Source: a virus. From it: a stretch of DNA of 64,000 nt. How positions within the stretch are numbered: the first letter of the stretch is position 1; every line of letters starts with the position of its first letter. A program made the position numbers and the translations under genes. The stretch covers positions 32,001 through 96,000 of the IMG/VR virus record IMGVR_UViG_3300021963_000054; one strand, given 5' to 3'. Below the pieces are notes generated by a model. The model had not been told where the DNA came from and made no database searches. It was given only the letters and a program-made list of their open reading frames with translations. Positions 30,253 through 62,073 of this stretch are shown here, piece by piece.

Positions 30253-30581
30253 GAACCATAGTCTGGAATGTGTCGGCAATGAACTGTTATCCCCAAGCAG
30301 AGGGACAAACAAATGTCGTATTCACCGTTCACTGGCAATGCAACGGCACTCAAGAGCAAGATGGCAAGACATACAACGGATCTGTCTACGCAAGTTGTGG
30401 TGTGACTTACGCCGCTGGATCAACATACATACCATATGCTAACTTAACAAAAGAAGATGTTCTTGGTTGGATTTGGGCATCTGGCGTGGACAAGGACGCT
30501 ACAGAAGCGGCCGTACAACAACAGATTGACACAGCAATTAATCCACCTTCGATTACTCCAACCTTGCCTTGGGAAAATTAA
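30249..30581 (+). CDS. Conserved fibre-associated protein (110 aa; paralogue of 34164)
   Basis: W.V....VV..VHW....YIPY..LT.E.VLGW....LPW pattern. Confidence 0.75.
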   Translation: MRTIVWNVSAMNCYPQAEGQTNVVFTVHWQCNGTQEQDGKTYNGSVYASCGVTYAAGSTYIPYANLTKEDVLGWIWASGVDKDATEAAVQQQIDTAINPPSITPTLPWEN

Positions 30582-30612
30582 AATCCTATTTTTTAACAAG
30601 ACTATATAAAAT

Positions 30613-32142
30613 ATGGCATCTAATCAAGACTTTATTGTAAAAAACGGTTTAACAATCGGCAGCTCACAAGTAATTGCCGCTAACGGTCGTTGGGTTGGTG
30701 TCAGCACAGGATTAATTGGTCCTCAAGGCGCACAGGGAGCCCAAGGTTCTCAAGGCGCAACAGGACCGACCGGACCTCAGGGAGCACAGGGAGCAACAGG
30801 TGGAACTGGTCCCACTGGTCCTCAAGGCGCTCAAGGTGCAACTGGAGGAACTGGACCAACTGGACCTCAAGGTGCTCAAGGAGCACAAGGTCCCGCTGGA
30901 CCAACTGGACCACAAGGCGCACAGGGAACACAAGGCGCACAAGGAAGTGCTGGACCTCCTGGTCCTACTGGTGCACAGGGACCAACTGGCGCACAGGGAC
31001 CAACTGGTGCTCAAGGTCCGACAGGTGCTACAGGACCAACAGGTCCAAGCAGCTGGTCAGCAATACCTGCTGGTACTAGAACCAACTATGATTTAAAATT
31101 TCAACCCAACAATGCTGACTATGCAGGATTTCAGTTTTTAAACGATGCTGGCTCGGGAGCTGGGTATCTGTTAGTTCGGTCTACTTCATCCGATAGCTTT
31201 CCACCCTATACAGCGGGCGGAATAACGCTTGTTTCAGACGTTGGCGGGTTAAACTTTTTTGCGAGAAGTGGAACCCAACTTGTAAGGATGGGGACGGGAA
31301 GCACCGAAACCTTTAGGCTCGAATCAAATTATTCACTGTCTATCAACAGCTCCCGTGCACCAATCTTCTACGACTACAACAACACTGGGTATTACACTGA
31401 CCCAGCCAGCACGTCAAATATGTATAATATAACTGTTCGTTCTGGCAGTCCATACGCAGCCGTTACAGATTTAGGATATGTATCTCCTATACAAGTCAGC
31501 GAAACAGGAACAGGAACAAACTCAGACCGATATGTTCCGATGATTTCAGGAACATCAACATCTTCTTCAGGTTATAGACAACATACTGTTTTTGGTTCTT
31601 TAAGAGGTTCTGTTTGGGGTTCCGCTTTTATTGCAGTTGGTGGTAACGACTCTTATCCGACTGTAGCATACACTTTTCACTATACTGGATATGGAACTGC
31701 TCCAGATTCTTGGAGAGCACCAATCTTCTACGACTCCAACAACACCGGGTATTACACTGACCCAGCCAGCACATCAGTTTTGAATGGACTAACAGTTGGT
31801 GGTGGAACTATTGCAACAACATCAGGCTCTCCTTCATACTATATGGCTAGAGCATGGGTAAATTTTGACGGTGCGGGAAGCATCCGGGCGCAAGTTAACG
31901 TGTCATCAATTTCTAAAAGTACTACAGGTACGTACCAAATAAATTTTGCAACTGCAATGCCAGATGCAAACTACGTAATGTCATATTCAAATAGCTATTT
32001 GTCGCCCGCATCTAACTCAAATGCTCCAGGCGGTGCGGCGGCGCCATACACGGCTTCGGTCGGAAGTGTTTGCTCTTACCAATCACAAGCGGTAGGAAAT
32101 TTAACTGATAATACTTATCAGTTGGTAGTAGTTTATAGATAA
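30613..32142 (+). CDS. Collagen-like fibre protein 2 (MASNQDF family, 509 aa)
   Basis: Long Gly-X-Y tract (about 30718-31050), two [18 protein letters not shown] repeats, and C-terminal [26 protein letters not shown]. Confidence 0.85.
31357..31776 (+). repeat. 60-nt direct repeat pair (31357-31416, 31717-31776)
   Basis: 57/60 nt identical. Encodes [20 protein letters not shown]. Confidence 0.9.
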
Positions 32143-32152
32143 GGAAATTAAT

Positions 32153-32452
32153 ATGAATAAAAGAATAATTTATCCGAACGATAATGGTGGTTTAGTACTT
32201 GTTATTCCAGCGCCAAATTGTGGATTAACAATAGAACAAATTGCCGCTAAAGATGTTCCTAATGGAAAACCTTATAAAATTTTAGAAGCAAGTGATGTTC
32301 CAGAAGACCATAATTTTTTTGACGCTTGGGAAGCAGATTTTTCTACCTATGATGGTCATGGAGAAGATTATGGTATTGGTTCACTCAATGCTGTAGTAGG
32401 ATGGAATAATGATGGATCACCGATGTTGAGAGTTGGGGAAATAATACAATGA
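32153..32452 (+). CDS. Fibre-associated small protein (99 aa)
   Basis: RBS AAGGA. IIY....IPA....IA.KDVP.G.PYKI...D.P...F.DAW pattern. Confidence 0.7.
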   Translation: MNKRIIYPNDNGGLVLVIPAPNCGLTIEQIAAKDVPNGKPYKILEASDVPEDHNFFDAWEADFSTYDGHGEDYGIGSLNAVVGWNNDGSPMLRVGEIIQ

Positions 32453-32697
32453 TTACTATTAATATTGACAAAGCAAAAAATATTGCTCACGAAAAACGTA
32501 GAATTGCCAGGGCTGCTGAATTTACTCCTTTAGACATTAAAGCAACTATTCCATCGGAATCAGTAGTCGCAGAGGCAGCTAGACAAATTATTAGAGATAA
32601 GTATACTGAGATACAAATAGGAATTAATTCTTCTGCCACCATTGATGAAATTAAAAATGAGATGGATAAATTTTCAGATAAATTAAATGGCATCTAA
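32449..32697 (+). CDS. Fibre-associated small protein (82 aa)
   Basis: ATGA coupling. I.I..DKAK.IAH..RR.AR..EF.PLD pattern. Confidence 0.7.
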
Positions 32698-34102
32698 TCA
32701 AGACTTCATCGTAAAGAACGGCCTCACAATAGGCAGTTCACAAGTAATTGCAGCCAATGGTCGCTGGGTTGGTGCTAACACAGGACTTTTTGGTCCTCAA
32801 GGCGCAACAGGACCTCAAGGCGCACAGGGAGCAACTGGTCCAACCGGCGCTCAAGGTCCTACTGGTCCAACTGGCGCACAGGGAGCAACTGGTCCCACTG
32901 GTCCTACTGGTCCACAAGGCGCACAGGGTCCAACAGGAAGTACTGGACCAACTGGACCTCAAGGAGCACAAGGCGCACAGGGAGGTGCTGGACCAACAGG
33001 ACCTCAAGGAGCACAGGGACCAACTGGCGCTACGGGACCAACGGGACCCACTGGACCTTCTGGCGCATCAATCTTAGGATCAAGCAATACTTGGACAGGT
33101 GGAAATTACTTTCGTTCTAATTTGGGAGCAACTTCCGGAAGTTTAAATAGTCCACCTTTACAAGCATATTCAGATAGCAATAACTCTGCTTTTATGTCTT
33201 TTCACAAAGGTGGAGTATATGCAGTAAACATGGGACTGGACTCCGATAACATATTGCGTATTGGTGGTTGGTCTGCTTCAGCGAATCGTTGGGAATTGGA
33301 TATGTCTGGAAACAATTGGGCAGCCAGTTCGTTCAGAGCAACAAGCTGGTACTACTCCAGTGACACCGCATATGGATTTATCGGGACTAACGTATATGCA
33401 GATACAATTAATTCTGGCGTGGGTGGCGACCAATTAGAATTATGTTATTACAGAGGTTCATTTACTTCTTCATCTGGTAGTATGCGAGCACCTTTGTTTT
33501 ATGATAGAGATGACACTGGATATTATCTTGATCCAAATACTACAAGCGATTCTGCATTGAGAATTCGTGGCGGTGCTTTACATGGTCCAAATCCTACTTG
33601 GGGATCTTACCTTTTAGTTGGCGGTGATGGAAGACAGAATTATACTAACAGCGGTTCAGTAGCATCTGTTTGTTCAACAAATGGCAATTTGCACATGGAT
33701 GCAGCCTCTGGTTATCAAATGTACTTAAACTATTATGATGGCGACGGAATTAACTTTGGTAATGGCGCAAATGGTGTTCACAGCACCTTATCTAGCGCAG
33801 GTAACCTTGCATTGGGCGGGACAGTAACGGCCACAAACCTTATCGGACAGTCTCAAACTTGGCAAAATGTGGTGGGCAGCAGGGCGGCAGGCACCTTGTA
33901 CACCAACAGCACATCACGTCCAATAACCGTAATAATTTGCTGTGCTTATGGGCAAAGTAATATGACTGTGTATGTTGACAGTGTGGCGTTTCTTGTAACA
34001 GGTCCATATGGAAACAGCGTAATTTTGTCTGCAACACTAATTGTTCCACCAGGATCTACATACAAGGCAGATAGTGTAAGTTATTGGATGGAACTTCGCT
34101 AA
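32687..34102 (+). CDS. Collagen-like fibre protein 3 (MASNQDF family, 471 aa)
   Basis: Gly-X-Y tract (about 32792-33066) and C-terminal QTWQNV..SR..GT.YTN.T.RPI.V..IVPPG.TY..W.ELR fibre tip. Confidence 0.85.
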
Positions 34103-34121: not shown

Positions 34122-34129
34122 TATAAATA
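34122..34129 (+). promoter_or_regulatory. T4 late promoter TATAAATA
   Basis: Exact consensus, intergenic, upstream of the 34164-36673 gene run. Confidence 0.8.
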
Positions 34130-34787: not shown

Positions 34788-35360
34788 ATGAACGGCGAAT
34801 GGGCTTACTTCAAAAGTAGATTTACCAAAGAGCAATGTGATTTCATTTTAGATGAAGGTCTAAAGTTACCTTCTAAAAAAGCATCTATGGGTGTTTCAGA
34901 TGAAATTGTGGATGATGATTACCGAAGAAGTGAGATTCGGTTTATTCATCAAGAACCCAAATTCCAATTTCTCTTTGATGAGATTTGGAAAATGGCAATT
35001 CAAGCAAACCACGACTTCTTCAATTTTCATATTAGCAGATTAAGTTTTGTACAACTTGCTGAATATTCATCCGAATATCAAGGCGAATATAAAAGACACC
35101 ATGATGTGTTTTGGATGAATGGTGATCCACACTTTCATAGAAAACTTACATGTGTAATCCAGTTGACTGATCCGACAACTTATGAAGGTGGTGATTTTGA
35201 GATGTATGACTTGTCGCAAAATTCTCCAGATAAGGAAGAAATACGACAACAAGGTACGGCAATATTTCTTCCATCTTTCATAAGTCACGCAGCCTTGCCA
35301 GTGACAGAAGGAACAAGACATTCATTAGCAGTATGGATGGAAGGTCCTAAGTGGAGATAA
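34788..35360 (+). CDS. 2OG-Fe(II) oxygenase, prolyl-4-hydroxylase/PKHD-like (190 aa)
   Basis: HxD (HHD), RKL, YEGG, distal H (SHA) and R-x-S (TRHS) motifs. Confidence 0.9.
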   Translation: MNGEWAYFKSRFTKEQCDFILDEGLKLPSKKASMGVSDEIVDDDYRRSEIRFIHQEPKFQFLFDEIWKMAIQANHDFFNFHISRLSFVQLAEYSSEYQGEYKRHHDVFWMNGDPHFHRKLTCVIQLTDPTTYEGGDFEMYDLSQNSPDKEEIRQQGTAIFLPSFISHAALPVTEGTRHSLAVWMEGPKWR

Positions 35361-35361
35361 T

Positions 35362-35916
35362 ATGAAAACAAATATGATTGTGGTTGATGAGTTCTATAAT
35401 AATCCAAATGATGTAAGAGAGTTTGCTTTAGCACAAGAGTTTGGTGTTACTGGTAATTGGCCAGGTTCTAGAACAAAAACTTTTATCAATGAAAGCACAA
35501 AAGAAACCATACAAAAAATACTCCAAGATGTATCTGGAAATGTTACAGACTGGCAAGCAAATGATGGTTATACAGGAAGTTTTCAACTAACAACTTCAAT
35601 GGATAGAAGTTGGATTCATGCTGATTCATACAACACTTGGGCAGGCGTTTTGTATTTGACTCCTGATGCTCCACTATCTGGTGGTACAGGAGTTTTTAGA
35701 TATAAGAAAACAGGAAGCATGACAGAAGATGGCACAGATTTATCCGGCGTCACACAAGATATGACTAAGTGGGAACTTGTTGATAGAGTTGGAAATGTTT
35801 ACAATAGATTAGTATTGTATCGTGGAAACAATTATCATATGTCTTTAGATTACTTCGGCAAAGACAAAGAAGATGGTAGACTGTTTCAACTATTTTTCAT
35901 AACAACAGAATATTGA
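35362..35916 (+). CDS. 2OG-Fe(II) oxygenase, DUF6445-like (184 aa)
   Basis: VVD.FY.NP..VR..AL, IHAD, AGVLYL.P, GGT, NRLVLY, distal H and R-L-x-Q. Confidence 0.8.
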   Translation: MKTNMIVVDEFYNNPNDVREFALAQEFGVTGNWPGSRTKTFINESTKETIQKILQDVSGNVTDWQANDGYTGSFQLTTSMDRSWIHADSYNTWAGVLYLTPDAPLSGGTGVFRYKKTGSMTEDGTDLSGVTQDMTKWELVDRVGNVYNRLVLYRGNNYHMSLDYFGKDKEDGRLFQLFFITTEY

Positions 35917-35917
35917 T

Positions 35918-36673
35918 ATGAAAATATGCAGAGTTATCTTTTCTACAAACAGACCAGAATTCTTAATACCGACTTTAGAATCACACCAAAAGTATATTGA
36001 CTTTGGTGACCATGAAGTTTATGGCATATTCATAGATGACTATCCAAAAGATAGAGATGATAAACTTATTGTAGAGTTAGCCAAAAAATATGGATTCAAT
36101 GAAGCAGTTCTTCATACAGAGAATCTTGGTTTAACACCAACTTGGACAGAGTTATGGAATTATCTAGCCACACAAGATTATGATTACATCTGGCACCATG
36201 AGGATGATGTAGTCTTTGGTGCACCAATCAAAATACAAACTCTGATAGATTTTCTGGAAGAAAACAAAGAGTTTTGTCAAGTCAATCTAAAGCGAAATCC
36301 ATGGTATGATTTTGAATTGAACAAACCAGCAATCACATGGGAAGACAAATTCTTTAGGGAGTACCGATATGATGTTAGGGATGACTATTTCTGGACAATG
36401 GCATCATTGTATCCAGCTTGGGTAACAAAAGAGCCAGTAAAAGAAGTTGAAGATTGCAATTTGGCTGAATATCCAGTGATGAAATATTTCAAAGAGCAAT
36501 ATAAGATGAAGATGGCCATTCTTAAGAATCAAGACGGAAGCAATCTTGTGGAACATATTGGAGTATATTCCCAAGGCAAAAGAGTGCTTGAGGGTGAGCC
36601 AGGATGGGAAGGTTTTAAGTGGTTTGATCCTAATAAAAAATATGATTCCAAGACTGGTGCCTTAATAGTATAA
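35918..36673 (+). CDS. GT-A fold (family 2-like) glycosyltransferase (251 aa)
   Basis: N-terminal strand + NRP..L..TLES, IFIDD, YIWHHEDD (DxD-like) and distal HIG. Confidence 0.75.
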   Translation: MKICRVIFSTNRPEFLIPTLESHQKYIDFGDHEVYGIFIDDYPKDRDDKLIVELAKKYGFNEAVLHTENLGLTPTWTELWNYLATQDYDYIWHHEDDVVFGAPIKIQTLIDFLEENKEFCQVNLKRNPWYDFELNKPAITWEDKFFREYRYDVRDDYFWTMASLYPAWVTKEPVKEVEDCNLAEYPVMKYFKEQYKMKMAILKNQDGSNLVEHIGVYSQGKRVLEGEPGWEGFKWFDPNKKYDSKTGALIV

Positions 36674-56136: not shown

Positions 56137-56589
56137 ATGATGCTAGTATTGCCTGATAATATGATTGGTAAGCCTGTTGGTTTTACTTGTTCCACTTTTG
56201 ATTTGCTACATGCTGGTCACATTCTGATGTTAGCCGAAGCAAAATCAATCTGTGATTACCTAATTGTTGCGTTGCAGATGGATCCATCAATTGATAGACC
56301 AGAATCTAAAAACAAACCAGTTCAGTCTATTGTTGAACGATATGTCCAACTTTCCGCTGTTAAATTTGTAGATGAAATTATTGTGTACCAGACAGAGAAA
56401 GATTTGGAAGATATGTTGATGTTCTTGCCAATTACAATACGAATTATTGGTGAAGAATACAAAGACAAAGATTTTACTGGTAAACAAATTTGTGAAGATA
56501 GAGCAATTAAAATTTTCTACAACCAACGCAGACATAGTTTTTCAACAACCGAATTACGTAAGAGAGTGGCTAATAAAAGTACACTATGA
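56137..56589 (+). CDS. Cytidylyltransferase, glycerol-3-phosphate (TagD)-like (150 aa)
   Basis: FDLLHAGH (HXGH), K.KP.QS..ER and R.HSFSTT. Confidence 0.88.
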   Translation: MMLVLPDNMIGKPVGFTCSTFDLLHAGHILMLAEAKSICDYLIVALQMDPSIDRPESKNKPVQSIVERYVQLSAVKFVDEIIVYQTEKDLEDMLMFLPITIRIIGEEYKDKDFTGKQICEDRAIKIFYNQRRHSFSTTELRKRVANKSTL

Positions 56590-57656
56590 AGATTGCTTTA
56601 ATTAATGATACACATGCTGGCGCACGTGGTGATAGTTTATTGTTCAATGAGTTCTTTTTTAAATTCTGGGAAGGTACATTCTTTCCATACCTAAAAGAGA
56701 ATAACATAACTCAGATTGTGCATCTTGGTGATGTAGTTGATAGACGCAAATTTATCAACTACGTCATTTTGAATTCTTGGCGTAAACGATTCTTTGATGT
56801 GCTTGAAAAAGAAAACATCAAGATGGATATCATCGTTGGTAACCATGATGTGACATACAAGAACACAAACGAAATTAATGCTATGCATGAATTGTTTGAT
56901 AGGTATGATAACATCAATGTGTTTATTGATCCTGTTGAAAGAACTTATGATAGTCTTCCAATCGCATTGGTACCATGGATCAATTCATCCAACTACGAAA
57001 ATTCACTTCAGTTTTTGCGTGATACAAAATCGGAAATTGTTTTTGGGCACTTTGAGATTTCTGGTTTTGAGATGGACAGAGGTAATGTTTGTCATGCTGG
57101 ACTAGATAAGAAAATCTTTGACAGATTTGATATGGTTCTATCTGGACACTTTCATCACAAGTCTTCGGATGGTACAATTCATTATCTTGGTAATCAATAC
57201 GAAATTACCTGGACAGATTACAATGATCCGAGAGGCTTTCATATCTTTGATACCGAGACAAGAGAGTTGACATTCGTTTCAAATCCGTGTAGAATGTTCT
57301 ACAAGATTAGCTATGATGATGAATCACAATCGTTTGAGTACTGGAAAGCATATGAATTCTCGGTACACAAAGACACTTATGTTAAAGTGGTTGTGGTAAA
57401 CAAAACAAATGCTTATCTTTTTGATTATGTGCTTGAGCAATTAAACAAAGCTGGTGTATCCGATGTGGCTGTGGTAGAAGATTTTTCTGATACCACAATA
57501 GATGATGACCAAGAACTAGTTGACCAAGCGGAAGATACCATGACTATTCTTTCCAAGTATATTGATGGGTTGACACTTGATGTAGATTCTGATAAACTAA
57601 AGAATCTAATGCGTGAGTTATATGTTGAATCTTTGAATGTTGAAGTGACTGAATGA
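56586..57656 (+). CDS. gp47: Recombination nuclease gp47 (Mre11/SbcD-like)
   Basis: DTH.G, LGD..D, GNHD and SGHFH phosphoesterase motifs. Confidence 0.96.
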   Translation: MKIALINDTHAGARGDSLLFNEFFFKFWEGTFFPYLKENNITQIVHLGDVVDRRKFINYVILNSWRKRFFDVLEKENIKMDIIVGNHDVTYKNTNEINAMHELFDRYDNINVFIDPVERTYDSLPIALVPWINSSNYENSLQFLRDTKSEIVFGHFEISGFEMDRGNVCHAGLDKKIFDRFDMVLSGHFHHKSSDGTIHYLGNQYEITWTDYNDPRGFHIFDTETRELTFVSNPCRMFYKISYDDESQSFEYWKAYEFSVHKDTYVKVVVVNKTNAYLFDYVLEQLNKAGVSDVAVVEDFSDTTIDDDQELVDQAEDTMTILSKYIDGLTLDVDSDKLKNLMRELYVESLNVEVTE

Positions 57657-59365
57657 TTTTTTTCAAAGCGATAAAATTTAAGAACTTTCTATCCACTGGT
57701 AATTACTTCACAGAAATTAATCTGTGTAATAGTACCAACACACTGGTAGTAGGAACAAACGGCGCCGGTAAGTCTACCTTGCTTGATGCGCTGTGCTTTG
57801 TTTTGTTTGGAAAACCATTTCGTTCTATCAATAAACCACAACTGGTAAACTCAATCAATCAAAAAGATTGTGTGGTTGAATGTGAGTTTAGTATCGGAAG
57901 CAAGAATTTTAAGATTGTTCGTGGTATCAAACCAAACATCTTTCAAATTTATGTTGATGGTGAAATGTTGAATCAAGATGCGGCTGTAAAAGACTACCAA
58001 GAACACCTAGAGAAATTTATTCTCAAACTTAATTATAAGTCTTTCACACAGATTGTCATTCTCGGTTCAGCATCTTTTGTGCCATTCATGCAACTATCTG
58101 CGGCTGACCGCAGAGCAATCATTGAAGATTTGCTGGACATTCAAATCTTTTCTACCATGAATAGTTTGTTGAAAGATAAACACTCAATCAATAAAGAAAC
58201 TGTTCAGAGTAACAAGCATGAATTAGACTTGTGTTCCAATCAACACAAATTGGTAGAAGAACATACAGAAAAAATCAAAAAGACTACCGATGAATTGATT
58301 GTAAGCAAAGAGTTGGAAGTAGCGAATGTTTGGCTTGAGATTGATTTGGTGCAAACCGAAATTCAATCAATGAACACACAAATTGTAGAGTTGCAAAAAG
58401 CAATAGAAGACAAAACTGTGGTGAATGACAAACTCAAAAAATTGAACCAGTTTGAAACTCAGATTGAAACCAATCTGTCCAAGTATCGTAAAGACATAAA
58501 CTTTTTCCTAAATAACGATGACTGCCCAACATGCAGACAAAGTATCCAACTAGAGTTTAAAGATAATCAAGTAAAAGATTTGAATGATAAAGCTGAAAAG
58601 TGTACACATGGTTTGTCCAAACTAGAAGCTGACATTCTAGCACAACAAAACAGATTGAATGAGATTACCAAAATTTCTAGTGAGATTCAAGTCAAGCAAG
58701 TTGCTGTTGCATCCAATAACTCCACTATTGTGGAATTAAATAAGTACATAGGTAAATTGCAAAAAGAGATAGGAGTATTGTCATCATCCAAGGAAGACTT
58801 GTCCTCGGAGACCAATAAACTTCTCGCATTGAAAACACAATTAGAGCAACTAGAATCCAAAAAGAAATTGTTAATAGAAGAAAAAACATATCTTGAAGCC
58901 GCCTCTCTGTTGTTAAAAGATACTGGTATCAAAACAAAAATTATTAAACAGTATTTGCCTATCATAAACAAGTTGGTAAATAAGTATCTAGCATCGCTGG
59001 ATTTCTTTGTCAATTTCAATCTTGATGAATCGTTCAAAGAAACAATCAAGTCACGCCATCGTGATGAATTTAGTTATGCATCGTTTAGTGAAGGTGAGAA
59101 ACAGAGAATTGATATGGCACTTATGTTGACATGGAGAGCAGTAGCAAAACTTAAGAATTCTACCAATACTAATTTGTTAATTTTGGATGAAGTGTTTGAT
59201 AGTAGCCTAGATAATAATGGAACTGAGTACTTGATGACAATTCTACAGATGCTTGAAGATGTTAATCTATTTGTGATATCACACAAGGGTGACATACTGC
59301 AAGATAAGTTCCGAAACTTAATTCGGTTTGAGAAGGTAAATAATTTTTCAAGGATAGTAAAATGA
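57653..59365 (+). CDS. gp46: Recombination ATPase gp46 (Rad50/SbcC-like)
   Basis: GTNGAGKS, CPTC zinc hook, FSEGEK and LILDE.FD. Confidence 0.97.
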   Translation: MIFFKAIKFKNFLSTGNYFTEINLCNSTNTLVVGTNGAGKSTLLDALCFVLFGKPFRSINKPQLVNSINQKDCVVECEFSIGSKNFKIVRGIKPNIFQIYVDGEMLNQDAAVKDYQEHLEKFILKLNYKSFTQIVILGSASFVPFMQLSAADRRAIIEDLLDIQIFSTMNSLLKDKHSINKETVQSNKHELDLCSNQHKLVEEHTEKIKKTTDELIVSKELEVANVWLEIDLVQTEIQSMNTQIVELQKAIEDKTVVNDKLKKLNQFETQIETNLSKYRKDINFFLNNDDCPTCRQSIQLEFKDNQVKDLNDKAEKCTHGLSKLEADILAQQNRLNEITKISSEIQVKQVAVASNNSTIVELNKYIGKLQKEIGVLSSSKEDLSSETNKLLALKTQLEQLESKKKLLIEEKTYLEAASLLLKDTGIKTKIIKQYLPIINKLVNKYLASLDFFVNFNLDESFKETIKSRHRDEFSYASFSEGEKQRIDMALMLTWRAVAKLKNSTNTNLLILDEVFDSSLDNNGTEYLMTILQMLEDVNLFVISHKGDILQDKFRNLIRFEKVNNFSRIVK

Positions 59366-59949
59366 ATGATAATGATATTTTAGTTATTGATACTGGAGCA
59401 AAAGCTCCAACCAAAGTTGTAGAAGAACAGATTCTTCCACTGTCTATTTTAACAGAAGGTAATCCAATTCTAAAAACACCAGTTGAAGAATTTGATATGT
59501 CGCAAGTCATGCAACCAGAAATTCAAAAATTTATTAAGCAGTTGAAGTTGACAATGAAAACCTACAATGGTGTTGGACTGTCAGCGAATCAATGTGGTTT
59601 TAAGTTTAGAATGTTTGTTATTGGTACAGACCAATTTCAGATGACTTGTATCAATCCAAGAATTATTGATGTTGATGGTGAACCAAAACTAATGCGTGAA
59701 GGTTGCTTGTCATATCCAGCGTTGTTTGTTGGCGTACCTAGATATGAAGGTATTCTTGTACATTACTATGATGAATACTCACAGCCAAAAGAATTGTGGT
59801 TGCGTGGTATTACCGCACAATGTTTCCAACATGAATTGGAACATCTTGATGGTAAAGTATTTCTTGAAAGAGTTAAGCCTCTTGCTATGCAGATGGCAAG
59901 AAAACGTCAAACTAAATTGATTAAGAAGATTGTAAGGAAATCAAAATGA
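59362..59949 (+). CDS. def: Peptide deformylase
   Basis: GVGLSANQ, EGCLS and QHELEHLDG motifs. Confidence 0.95.
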   Translation: MNDNDILVIDTGAKAPTKVVEEQILPLSILTEGNPILKTPVEEFDMSQVMQPEIQKFIKQLKLTMKTYNGVGLSANQCGFKFRMFVIGTDQFQMTCINPRIIDVDGEPKLMREGCLSYPALFVGVPRYEGILVHYYDEYSQPKELWLRGITAQCFQHELEHLDGKVFLERVKPLAMQMARKRQTKLIKKIVRKSK

Positions 59950-60317
59950 GCGATATAAAAGTTCAAGAAACAACTGAGTATGAGAGTTGTCTTGATTTTG
60001 AGAGTGATGATATCAATGATGTTTCTAAATTTATGGATGGTGAAGAAACACAAGAAGAAAAACTTCCTATAGTTGAAGTTGATGATTCGTTGCTTACCAG
60101 AGACCAATTCTTCAAGAAGTATTGGAAAGGTATGCCGACTTTTGACCAGAATGATAATCCACCTTGGAAACAACTTTATGTTAACTTCCGAAATGAAGAA
60201 GATTATCTAGCATTTGCTAAGTTGATTGACCAAGCACTATCAGATAAGAGTAAAAGTATTTGGTATCCAAAACTTGACGTAGAAGAAAACTCATTGAATC
60301 GTTGGATTGTAGAATGA
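59946..60317 (+). CDS. Small acidic protein coupled to the glycosyltransferase (123 aa)
   Basis: W.GMP.F.Q....V.F...ED...F...I.Q.....KSIWYP pattern. ATGA overlaps at both ends. Confidence 0.75.
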   Translation: MSDIKVQETTEYESCLDFESDDINDVSKFMDGEETQEEKLPIVEVDDSLLTRDQFFKKYWKGMPTFDQNDNPPWKQLYVNFRNEEDYLAFAKLIDQALSDKSKSIWYPKLDVEENSLNRWIVE

Positions 60318-61219
60318 TTAACCCTAAGTATCCAGTTTATATTATCTCTAAAGGTCGGCATGAATCCATGTTGACTTCTCGGTCACTCGCTCGTATGAAA
60401 GTTCCTCATTACATTGCAATTGAACCACAAGACCTAGACAACTATGAGAAAGCATTGGATGAATTTAAGATTCGCCCATATGTTACATTGCTAGTTGCGC
60501 CATTCAGTAATCATGGCGATGGTCCTGGTCGTGCTAGAAATTGGTGTTGGGATCATGCGATTGAAATTGGTGCAGAAAAGCATTGGGTACTAGATGATAA
60601 CATTTCTGATTTCTACCGTTTGAATCAGAACAAACGATACCGTGTAGAATCTGGTGCTATCTTCCGAGCCGCAGAAGATTTTGTTGACCGCTTTGAGAAT
60701 GTGCCAATCTCTGGCTTTCAGTATCGTTTCTTCATTGCACCAAATTCAAAGTATCCTCCTTTCGTAACTAACACACGAATCTATTCTTGTTTGCTTATCT
60801 CTAATGATTGCAAACATCGTTGGCGTGGTAGGTACAATGAAGATACTGATATCTGTCTCCGCGTATTGAAAGATGGTGATTGCACTATTCAATTCAATGC
60901 ATTCTTGCAAGGTAAAGCGGCTACACAAACAGTTAAGGGTGGTAACACCGAAGAATTCTATCATAAAGAATTTGCTGACCAAGACGAAAACTTTAAGAAG
61001 ACTGGTTACAACAGTAGTGGCACAATCAATAAGTCTCAGATGCTTGCAGATATGCATCCAGATGTTGCAAGAGTTGTTTGGCGTTATGGTCGTTGGCATC
61101 ATTATGTTGACTATAATCCATTCAAGGTAAACAAACTGCGAATGAAAGCTGATGCTGTAATTCCAGAAGGCAACAACGAATATGGAATGAAGTTGATTCG
61201 TAATTGGAAAGCAGATTGA
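60314..61219 (+). CDS. TET/JBP-associated (GREB1-like) glycosyltransferase, putative DNA base modifier (start revised to 60314)
   Basis: YPVYIISKGR, EPQD...Y, G.G.ARN..W, HWVLDDNI, RIYSC.L, WRG.YNEDTD..L..L and K..T....GGN. Confidence 0.78.
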   Translation: MINPKYPVYIISKGRHESMLTSRSLARMKVPHYIAIEPQDLDNYEKALDEFKIRPYVTLLVAPFSNHGDGPGRARNWCWDHAIEIGAEKHWVLDDNISDFYRLNQNKRYRVESGAIFRAAEDFVDRFENVPISGFQYRFFIAPNSKYPPFVTNTRIYSCLLISNDCKHRWRGRYNEDTDICLRVLKDGDCTIQFNAFLQGKAATQTVKGGNTEEFYHKEFADQDENFKKTGYNSSGTINKSQMLADMHPDVARVVWRYGRWHHYVDYNPFKVNKLRMKADAVIPEGNNEYGMKLIRNWKAD

Positions 61220-62073
61220 TGAGTATTGTTGATGAAATAGGCAAAGAGAGTCTAAAGCGGTATCTTGAAAACTGTGCTAAGGTTGCAGACATAGATATTG
61301 AGGCGGCATTCAAAGTCACATTGAATTGTATGAAAGCGCATGATGGCGCAATCATACCAGATGATGATATGCGTCAAATGAAAGACCTTGAGAACAGATG
61401 GTATGCATCATTGGAAACAGGAACGCCAGACTATTCTGTTTACTCTGATGCTTATTATTTCTGCGAAGTGTGGATGTGTTGGACAAAATACTCTAGAAGG
61501 TATCTCAAAGAAATCAATGCGCCAAAGTCTATGTTTGGTAAAAGTATAGTTGAATACATTGGTAATGTTGACAATGTGGTTGACTTGGGATGCGGTTTCG
61601 GTTATACTACAGTTGGTATGAAAGAATTGTTTCCCAACTCCAATGTCTATGGTACAAATCTAAAAGATAGTTACCAGTACAAGATGGCAACAGAGTTGGG
61701 TGACAAACACAATTTCAAAATCATTGAGAATCTTACTCAAGTTGAAAAGCCAGGAACAAGTTTGTTTTTTGCTTCCGAGTACTTTGAACACTTTGACAGA
61801 CCGATTGAACATTTGATTGATGTGATTGAACAAGGCTCACCAACTTATATGTTGATTGCTAACACATTCAACGGAAGAGCCATTGGTCACTTCAATCAAT
61901 ACAAAGATTGTACCGAAGTCTATGATGGAAAACAAATGGGAAGATTGTTCGGAAAAACACTCAGAAAATATGGATACGAAAGTGTTAACACAGATTGTTG
62001 GAATAATAGACCAGCTTTTTGGCAGAGAAAAGATAGTTGTTTTTTAACAACAGAGAACTTTAGTAATACTTGA
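61219..62073 (+). CDS. Class I SAM-dependent methyltransferase (start revised to 61219)
   Basis: VVDLGCGFG motif I and ASEYFEH. TGATG coupling to the glycosyltransferase. Confidence 0.8.
   Translation: MSIVDEIGKESLKRYLENCAKVADIDIEAAFKVTLNCMKAHDGAIIPDDDMRQMKDLENRWYASLETGTPDYSVYSDAYYFCEVWMCWTKYSRRYLKEINAPKSMFGKSIVEYIGNVDNVVDLGCGFGYTTVGMKELFPNSNVYGTNLKDSYQYKMATELGDKHNFKIIENLTQVEKPGTSLFFASEYFEHFDRPIEHLIDVIEQGSPTYMLIANTFNGRAIGHFNQYKDCTEVYDGKQMGRLFGKTLRKYGYESVNTDCWNNRPAFWQRKDSCFLTTENFSNT

Follow-up and report, generated by a model that had tools for sequence, protein, structure and literature searches.

Gene organization of the locus

The cassette lies in the genome of an uncultured T4-like phage from water (G000, completeness 61%). 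The window, meaning the whole stretch of DNA analysed, covers 64,000 nucleotides of a 105-kb contig, and all positions below refer to it. Seven chained genes run from 56137 to 62073, and the last three, confirmed as open reading frames on the + strand (59946-60317, 60314-61219 and 61219-62073), form the cassette. The features of the chain that are used below are the following:

56137..56589, + strand: sugar-phosphate nucleotidyltransferase-like gene, 150 aa, first in the chain, with a 4-nt overlap with gp47
59946..59949, + strand: stop/start overlap ATGA between def and the small gene, read directly from the sequence
59946..60317, + strand: small adaptor gene, 123 aa, with an acidic N-terminal tail and a conserved domain of ~65 aa
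60314..60317, + strand: stop/start overlap ATGA between the small gene and TAGT, read directly; the split point of the fusion found in relatives
60314..61219, + strand: TAGT-family (JGT/GREB1-like, GT-A) glycosyltransferase gene, 301 aa, start ATG at 60314 (PF20691, phrog_842)
61217..61221, + strand: stop/start overlap TGATG between TAGT and the methyltransferase (MT) gene, read directly from the sequence
61219..62073, + strand: class-I SAM-dependent methyltransferase gene, 284 aa, with an N-terminal helical domain, start ATG at 61219

The initial annotation had described three genes joined by ATGA/TGATG overlaps and prolonging a gp47-gp46-def chain, and the reading frames, the junctions and the profile matches all bear this out. 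The SbcD-like gp47 corresponds to phrog_100 (E 1e-103), the SbcC-like gp46 to phrog_77 (E 3e-174) and the deformylase (def) to PF01327 (E 6e-38); gp55 was identified via phrog_234. Overlaps of 4 nt also occur further upstream in the chain, at 56586-56589, 57653-57656 and 59362-59365. The order def-small-TAGT-MT-peptidase is common to all 21 of the 21 related IMG/VR loci, and the cassette is surrounded by recombination and replication genes, with no late promoter TATAAATA found between 52613 and 63332. Sigma-70-like sites at the edges of the chain (56110 and 62070) were also considered, but such sites are fewer than in shuffled sequences and no claim is made for them. The first product of the chain matches PF01467 (E 9e-12) and phrog_7878 (E 2e-34), as well as RfaE domain II (E 2.7e-23) and TagD (E 9e-16), both of the latter under the curated cut-offs. 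Its gene is a candidate for activating the donor sugar and may be associated with the cassette.

The TAGT glycosyltransferase and its adaptor

Assignment of the middle gene to the TAGT glycosyltransferases, as initially proposed, is confirmed by a match to PF20691 over profile positions 1-205 of 205 (E 3.8e-47, 161.3 bits against a cut-off of 27.5) together with invariant GT-A residues, and phrog_842 is matched at E 3.8e-49. Across 24 diverse homologues, down to 21% identity, R75, D94, D95 and D177 are invariant, N175 is conserved and E176 is present in at least 90%. They are the counterparts of the R...DDD...ED motifs known from phage DNA GT-A enzymes; 5hmC is a substrate of phage GT-A/JGT-like enzymes (bioRxiv 10.1101/2023.12.21.572611). 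The catalytic residues are intact, and characterised members of the family glycosylate DNA or sugar attached to it; the protein is predicted to do likewise. More than 7800 homologues were found, many of them ~80% identical, and in one relative TAGT is fused to a UDG-superfamily domain; a sequence search of the PDB gave no match.

The small protein has no match in Pfam, PHROG or NCBIfam, and ParB_N (PF02195) is absent from it. Its conserved domain carries the motifs W..MPEF, ED..F and KTKSIWYP, its model when folded alone is of low confidence (pLDDT 64), and an Atlas search matched unnamed viral clusters only. By tblastn it matches the region just 5′ of the TAGT domain within a single open reading frame of Aeromonas phages (Aeh1p093, 399 aa). 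Among 78 close TAGT loci, 75 have the adaptor domain next to TAGT or fused to it (fused in 14), and in relatives of ~200 aa it forms the C-terminal part behind a ParB_N domain. On this sequence comparison the small protein is the detached N-terminal domain of the long TAGT proteins, with no separate third function. A sequencing or programmed frameshift at the small/TAGT junction was rejected, because the split is kept, with differing reading frames, in 21 of 21 related loci, where the junction takes two forms, and both genes possess a start of their own. Relatives' modules also encode ParB_N (PF02195) partner proteins (L070, L082, L084, L101 and G021), and the closest relatives of their ParB_N are those of ParB-N6/N4 DNA methylase fusions. 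It may be noted that thousands of matches seeming to place the small domain itself in ParB_N-N6/N4 methylase fusions came from the ParB_N columns; the pairwise check gave E 0.033 and this assignment was dropped.

The methyltransferase

The third gene encodes a member of an uncharacterised family confined to phage sequences (888 homologues, 667 representatives). Its DLGCGFG (aa 122-128) and EYFEH (aa 187-191) are invariant in 38 homologues, as are C87, E187, E190, H191 and H224, and the family has motifs of its own (PDYSVY, CW..YS, FASEYFEH, GHF and WNNRP). Pfam methyltransferase scores are sub-threshold (17.9 against a cut-off of 27) while homologues carry PF13489/PF08241; the PDB sequence search gave weak generic methyltransferase matches only. 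No match was obtained by tblastn against 50,697 phage records, and among genome contigs the gene was found in 12 MAG contigs only, with no cultured host. The initial annotation took it for a small-molecule or sugar methylase lacking DNA-methyltransferase motifs, and this view holds: PF00145, PF01555 and PF02086 are not matched, and the alignment contains neither PC nor (D/N/S)PP(Y/F) motifs. In its AF2 model (pLDDT 94), which matched hundreds of class-I methyltransferases at Z >8, the fold resembles small-molecule O-methyltransferases, the best structural neighbours being small-molecule O-/C-methyltransferases (MfnG at Z 13.3, MmcR, DnrK and SgvM). The RdmB hydroxylase is also a neighbour (Z 12.1), and no DNA methylase is among the best 50 structural matches listed. 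MT is thus predicted to be a tailoring enzyme that O-methylates a sugar.

Linkage and mobility of the cassette

The small gene, TAGT and MT occur together within 8 kb in 57 of 80 MT loci, from 41 lineages and in permuted orders, and natural TAGT-MT fusions exist (P0122, P0162, P0219 and L103, 555 aa), as do fusions of MT with ParB_N. Nucleotide identity is 85-96% within the cassette but 50-80% in the flanking sequence (L010, L013); the cassette is transferred as a unit and is horizontally mobile. That the three genes form one functional unit is therefore supported by the gene fusions, the permuted but conserved linkage and the block transfer. MT is almost never found without TAGT, whereas 66 of 78 close loci and every cultured carrier have the small gene and TAGT but no MT. 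The slot between the small gene and TAGT is alternatively filled by an FkbM methylase, a second TAGT or a GT-B-like gene, so that several tailoring genes, MT among them, alternate in one slot. In 6 lineages NDP-sugar 4,6-dehydratase/epimerase genes adjoin the module. Small phages have it before TerS/TerL (G011, G013, G020) or, in Vibrio phage 1.076.O, between portal and head-morphogenesis genes.

Search for a handle-making enzyme

No C5-MTase or TET gene was found in the window, as had been noted initially, nor in the whole 105-kb contig, the PF12851 search for TET having been run without a positive control. A complete close relative (G001, 162 kb with terminal repeats) has a TAGT that is 98% identical. 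The TS-type hydroxymethylase profile PF00303 had no match in 47 records that carry the cassette or a TAGT, including 7 with a completeness of 90% or more, while the same search recovered the TS genes of Aeh1, PTm1, GD virus 1 and Kuja. dCMP hydroxymethylase (gp42, TS family) was likewise missing from G000 and from the complete G001, G006 and G031. PF00145 (C5-MTase) gave 0 of 28 records and PF01702 (DpdA) 0 of 5. The TET/JBP profile PF12851, in the search without positive control, gave a single sub-threshold match of 15 bits (G013), which is a PF13640 P4H-like oxygenase. An oxygenase of this type is also encoded in the window at 34788-35360; as the missing oxidase, however, the P4H-like 2OG oxygenase was rejected, as just 3 of 27 module records contain it and G001 does not. 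ThyX as a universal partner was also rejected, as it occurs only in T4-like carriers. In the stretches scanned of the small complete module phages (G020, G013 and G011) no nucleotide-metabolism genes were seen. Seven near-complete genomes thus lack any known handle-making enzyme searched for.

The initial annotation had further proposed a methylated-sugar adduct on cytosine, responsible for an avoidance of GATC/GCWGC. Of this, the methylated sugar is a reasonable inference from the identity of TAGT, the type of MT and the functional unity of the three genes, but the cytosine part is left without pathway genes. The hydroxymethyl model fails because the upstream hydroxymethylation pathway, on which it had been made to depend beforehand, was not found. 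Nor does the GATC/GGATC pattern follow the cassette: G001 and ten cassette-bearing loci (including L010-L012, L015-L019 and L022), with a TAGT of up to 98% identity, lack the conditional avoidance of GATC. G000 itself strongly avoids TCGA, CGCG, GGCC and GATC (observed/expected 0.14-0.33), which counts against a genome-wide protective modification of C or G.

Comparison with known systems

The TAGT family includes the second glucosyltransferase of T6 (PMC13390438), and the T2/T6 beta-glucosyl-HMC-alpha-glucosyltransferase shares with the cassette the family PF20691 and the T4-like background, although the T6 enzyme was not detected by tblastn at E 1e-5. In both systems a transferase builds (here, by prediction) a tailored glycan on DNA and alternative transferases swap at one locus. 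The T-evens, however, make 5hmC with gp42 before replication and have neither methylase nor adaptor domain, whereas the cassette has both and its lineage has no TS-family enzyme. Closer in context are the GT-A (JGT-like) DNA glycosyltransferase clusters associated with C5-MT/5mYOX in metaviromes (Burke 2021, PMC8256090; Pyle 2023/2024). These share with the cassette the GT-A fold with R/DD/ED motifs and, by prediction for the cassette, post-replicative action, and their neighbourhoods likewise contain ParB-like proteins, epimerases, O-methyltransferases, second glycosyltransferases and terminases. They differ in possessing 5mYOX/C5-MT; in the cassette and in complete carrier genomes neither could be detected. 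The same surveys left ~65% of glycosyltransferase contigs unexplained, with no hydroxymethylating enzyme nearby; the cassette belongs to this group, and methylated glycans are unreported there.

Experiments have established that ParB-like proteins activate phage DNA dioxygenases (O'Toole 2026, PMC13229309). As in the cassette's relatives, a non-segregation ParB_N partner stands beside a DNA-modifying enzyme in these thymine dioxygenase systems, and its C-terminal domain is required for function. The cassette instead pairs a glycosyltransferase with a methyltransferase, and the small protein of the window has lost ParB_N and keeps only the domain that stands C-terminal to ParB_N in its own relatives. 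The closest cultured relatives (45-55% identity) are Aeh1p093 and its homologues in phages 65, phiAS5, PTm1, Kuja and 1.076.O, in which adaptor and TAGT are fused in one protein of predicted function with no MT partner; the Aeromonas phages Aeh1 and 65 have no dCMP hydroxymethylase (PMC2993671, Table 4). MT shares its class-I Rossmann core and N-terminal helical domain with the O-methyltransferases MfnG, MmcR and DnrK/RdmB (Z 12-13), and like natural-product O-methyltransferases and sugar-tailoring methylases it is genetically paired with a glycosyltransferase. Sequence identity to them is nevertheless at most ~13%, and MT has its own invariant motifs and is phage-confined.

Proposed mechanism and alternatives

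We propose, with about even confidence, that the cassette is a self-contained mobile glycosylation module that places a sugar on phage DNA, where it is then O-methylated. TAGT would transfer the sugar from a nucleotide-sugar donor, and the small protein would most likely act as a detached adaptor docking TAGT to a partner or substrate, since in other phages the adaptor domain forms the C-terminal part of ParB_N proteins. The target is most likely the phage's own DNA after replication; we infer this from the ParB_N partners, the MT+ParB_N fusions, the UDG-domain fusion and the position in the replication region without a late promoter. MT would then O-methylate the transferred sugar, a downstream tailoring step suggested by its rarity without TAGT, the slot swaps, its fold and the neighbouring NDP-sugar genes. 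The resulting methylated-glycosyl base may alter how host nucleases see the phage DNA.

That the searches of complete relatives found no handle-making enzyme would also fit a non-DNA target, for instance a protein of the virion or the host or a different glycoconjugate, with MT capping the sugar and the ParB_N/adaptor serving as a protein scaffold. GREB1, a member of the TAGT family, O-GlcNAcylates a protein (PMC7968844), the module of small phages adjoins packaging or structural genes, and restriction-site avoidance persists in G000. We consider this unlikely, since the ParB_N of the partners is akin to that of DNA methylase fusions, TAGT can be fused to a UDG domain, the T4-like cassette sits in a replication/recombination cluster without a late promoter, and every characterised phage TAGT/JGT-like enzyme acts on DNA. 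Within DNA, the adaptor-TAGT(-MT) system might attach the (methylated) sugar directly to a canonical base or native DNA position with no hydroxymethyl handle, the ParB-derived adaptor giving access to the duplex, a possibility that we regard as quite unlikely.

Two further explanations appear very improbable. One is the initial model, by which genes beyond the window encode a conventional route to 5-hydroxymethyl-cytosine (or -uracil) and TAGT and MT follow, explaining GATC/GCWGC. TAGT relatives in T6 and Vibrio phage Kuja, the latter with two TAGTs, do coexist with TS-like enzymes (PMC13390438 and this analysis), G000 is incomplete, and phage 5mYOX enzymes can evade the TET/JBP Pfam model (PMC13229309). 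Against these points, G001 and six near-complete carriers have no TS-like enzyme, C5-MTase, N6/N4 methylase or Dam, DpdA is absent from the 5 records searched, ThyX alone is present and in T4-like carriers only, and G001 and the ten cassette-bearing loci named above do not share the conditional GATC pattern. The other would have MT act first on DNA, modifying a base or creating the handle through Cys87 and a Glu/Glu/His/His cluster, before TAGT glycosylates the product. It could draw on the invariance of these residues, the MT+ParB_N fusions, the non-methylating RdmB among the structural neighbours and the lack of another handle-making enzyme. TAGT is, however, independent of MT, which most loci and all cultured carriers lack, other genes for sugar tailoring occupy the same slot, MT resembles no DNA methylase in sequence or among the best structural matches listed, and a methyl group is no glycosyl acceptor.

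Significance

DNA glycosylation is a major counter-defence of phages, and epigenetic tools draw on its enzymes. With the glycosylation module proposed here, the orphan GT-A class gains a defined architecture: a highly conserved TAGT, an obligatory adaptor domain (split, fused or carried on ParB_N) and a swappable tailoring slot, filled in this case by a new methyltransferase family. Methylated DNA glycans are not described in the literature compared. The seven near-complete genomes without the known handle enzymes searched for imply an unknown route to hydroxylated bases or a new acceptor, and the question can be tested directly in phages already in culture that carry the two-domain core (Aeh1, 65 and 1.076.O). 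Handle-free glycosylation, if true, would represent an unprecedented DNA glycosylation chemistry, widespread in aquatic phages.

Cassette organization and protein families

The source contig (G000) is a linear IMG/VR record of 104,951 bp from an uncultured T4-like phage, with 38% GC and an estimated completeness of 61%; the window covers its bases 32001-96000.

Genes of the cassette and of the coupled chain (window positions)
59946-60317, + strand: small-protein ORF, 123 aa
60314 (ATG) to 61219, + strand: TET/JBP-associated glycosyltransferase (TAGT) gene, 301 aa
61219 (ATG) to 62073, + strand: methyltransferase (MT) gene, 284 aa
upstream in the chain: def (PF01327, E 6e-38)
upstream in the chain: gp46 (SbcC-like, E 3e-174)
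upstream in the chain: gp47 (SbcD-like, E 1e-103)

The cassette junctions read as ATGA, ATGA and TGATG stop/start overlaps, and 4-nt overlaps likewise link def, gp46, gp47 and the gene at 56137, whose 150-aa product resembles a nucleotidyltransferase; therefore seven genes are chained. ORFs and junctions thus confirm the initial annotation of three overlap-joined genes continuing the gp47-gp46-def chain. The first gene of the chain (56137-56589), which resembles heptose-1-phosphate adenylyltransferase or glycerol-3-phosphate cytidylyltransferase, is kept in 7 T4-like lineages, and its product may activate the donor sugar.

The middle gene scores 161 bits against PF20691 (cut-off 27.5) and is, judged by its sequence, unambiguously a TAGT. 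R75, D94, D95 and D177 are invariant across 24 aligned homologues with identity down to 21%, and match the R/DDD/ED active-site motifs of phage GT-A DNA glycosyltransferases (bioRxiv 10.1101/2023.12.21.572611). For the third protein all Pfam methyltransferase matches were below threshold. Its family is large (888 homologues in one search, 667 representatives at 50% identity in another), and in it the DLGCGFG and FASEYFEH motifs and Cys87 do not vary. The closest solved structures to its confident AlphaFold model (pLDDT 94) are small-molecule O-/C-methyltransferases with an N-terminal helical domain, among them MfnG (Z 13.3), MmcR, DsyB, DnrK and SgvM; no DNA methylase was among the matches listed. 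The family assignments made initially for the second and third genes were thus right. No tblastn match to the MT family was found among 50,697 deposited phage genomes, and in prokaryote genomes it occurs in 12 MAG contigs only.

No family match was found for the small protein in profile searches, and in tblastn it matched the stretch directly upstream of the TAGT domain within single ORFs. Such fused ORFs are found in Aeromonas phages (Aeh1p093 has 399 aa) and in PTm1 of Tenacibaculum (471 aa); homologues that are likewise long, 389-452 aa, are present in the cultured 1.076.O, GD virus 1 and Kuja. This adaptor domain is adjacent or fused to TAGT in 75 (fused in 14) of the 78 IMG/VR loci whose TAGT is a close relative (65-97% identity); in the remaining 3 the upstream sequence is missing. 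In more distant phages the same ~65-aa domain (W..MPEF ... KTKSIWYP) forms the C-terminal half of ~200-aa proteins, the N-terminal half being ParB_N (PF02195). The small gene and TAGT lie in different frames in 21 of 21 close relatives, with two junction structures; therefore the split is real and an assembly error is ruled out. By these comparisons, the small protein corresponds to a domain that has split off from TAGT proteins.

Two variants of the fusion may be noted. A 547-aa protein at L093:7622-9262 (also in L107) joins a UDG-superfamily domain (PF03167, E 2e-5) to the adaptor domain and TAGT; the next gene is sliding-clamp-like. In the cultured Vibrio phage Kuja (record 30264-32952, L220) the fused adaptor-TAGT gene is present as a tandem pair (446 and 452 aa), with a TS-like gene (E 3e-62) ~6 kb away; a hydroxymethyl pyrimidine may be the substrate of this TAGT subfamily there.

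A mobile unit with a swappable slot

In both function and evolution the three genes form a single unit. Adaptor, TAGT and MT lie within 8 kb in 57 of the 80 loci found by the MT profile, representing 41 lineages with permuted gene order, and several proteins are MT-TAGT fusions (P0122, P0162, P0219, L103), while other MT-family proteins are fused to ParB_N. In two relatives nucleotide identity is 85-96% over ~60000-62070, nearly the whole cassette, versus 50-80% in flanking genes; at the protein level, TAGT is 98% and MT 94% identical to the related locus L010, against 76% for gp46, 44% for def and 62% for a peptidase. MT without TAGT is rare, but no MT accompanies adaptor and TAGT in 66 of the 78 close loci or in any cultured carrier.

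Contents of the slot between adaptor and TAGT in loci without MT
second TAGT paralogue: 8 loci
FkbM-family methylase (PF05050): 3 loci
GT-B-like gene: 1 locus
uncharacterised 355-aa protein: 5 loci

Genes for an NDP-sugar 4,6-dehydratase/epimerase are found beside the module in six lineages; in the complete phage G013 they lie immediately upstream of it. The asymmetric dependency, the slot contents and the sugar genes together fit a core transferase whose glycan-tailoring enzymes are interchangeable. Therefore we infer that MT is a sugar O-methyltransferase acting after TAGT, and the methylated-sugar product proposed initially is plausible.

Restriction-site avoidance

Each of the 124 GATC sites in G000, of which 77 lie in the window, has the form GGATC or GATCC, and [ACT]GATC[AGT] does not occur. 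The initial annotation had tentatively linked this avoidance to the cassette, a link that failed on comparison of relatives: in the complete 162-kb relative G001 (TAGT 98% identical) 92 of 248 GATC sites are unflanked, and ten further cassette-bearing loci lack the conditional pattern, which therefore does not track the cassette. In G000 the observed/expected ratios are strongly reduced (TCGA 0.14, CGCG 0.24, GGCC 0.24, GATC 0.33), as against 0.90 (normal), 0.64, 0.40 and 0.48 in G001. Searches for N6/N4, Dam-type and C5 methylases were negative in G000, G001 and three further records (G002, G006, G031); therefore the GATC pattern is not explained by a phage-encoded methylase. This sharp difference in palindromes between close relatives looks like host-specific restriction pressure, and the strong avoidance in G000 argues against a genome-wide protective modification of C or G.

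Target of the module

Our best reading, which we hold with roughly even confidence, is that adaptor, TAGT and O-methyltransferase make up a mobile module attaching a methylated sugar to phage DNA; that its target is something other than DNA we consider unlikely. Characterised phage members of the TAGT family act on DNA (PMC13390438; bioRxiv 10.1101/2023.12.21.572611). Also in favour of DNA, the ParB_N partners are most closely related to the ParB_N domains found in fusions of ParB with DNA methylases, experiments have established ParB-like activators of phage DNA dioxygenases (PMC13229309), one adaptor-TAGT protein bears a UDG-superfamily domain, recombination and replication genes surround the cassette, and a motif scan found no TATAAATA late promoter near it. 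Against DNA, the searches revealed no enzyme that would make a handle for the sugar. PF00303 was found in none of 47 TAGT-bearing records, including seven of at least 90% completeness (G001, which has terminal repeats, G006, G011, G013, G020, G021 and G031), while as positive control the TS genes of Aeh1, PTm1, GD virus 1 and Kuja were recovered. PF00145 was likewise found in 0 of 28 records, and PF01702, PF01555 and PF02086 each in 0 of 5. The hydroxymethyl-cytosine pathway of the initial annotation is therefore unsupported, near-complete relatives included. The search with PF12851, run without a positive control, gave a single 15-bit match, a P4H-like PF13640 protein, and phage dioxygenases can evade this model (PMC13229309). 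Gene 42 is reported to be absent from Aeh1 and 65 (PMC2993671). The G020 gene set is of small-phage type (Gp157, ERF, SSB, RusA, then the module beside terminase), and no nucleotide-metabolism gene was found among ten genes scanned around its module.

Several neighbouring features were recorded. A TATAAATA motif at 34122 precedes the genes at 34788-36673, which encode a P4H-like 2OG oxygenase (PF13640), a DUF6445 protein and a GT2 glycosyltransferase; this oxygenase is ruled out as the partner of the cassette, its family being absent from G001. Just beyond the window (G000 98184-98999; L031:5185-5997), between CobS and gp45, a 271-aa protein of phrog_1574, a group of no assigned function, with a weak Anp1 mannosyltransferase match (E 2.5e-5) lies beside the cassette region in 8 lineages and may be a further glycosyltransferase. 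In G020 the N-terminal ATPase part (L119:352-1065) and the C-terminal nuclease part (L119:5367-6179) of the large terminase are ~4.3 kb apart, separated by 805-aa and 233-aa ORFs without known family, which may reflect an insertion or a split terminase. In PTm1 (L025/L026/L028) the thymidylate synthase match falls in two stretches inside a 527-aa open frame; there is also a second TS-like stretch, divergent in sequence and interrupted by an in-frame TAA.

The MT family is a new methyltransferase family, and the cassette provides a defined architecture for the many phage GT-A genes classed as 'orphan'; its adaptor-TAGT core is open to testing in cultured phages.
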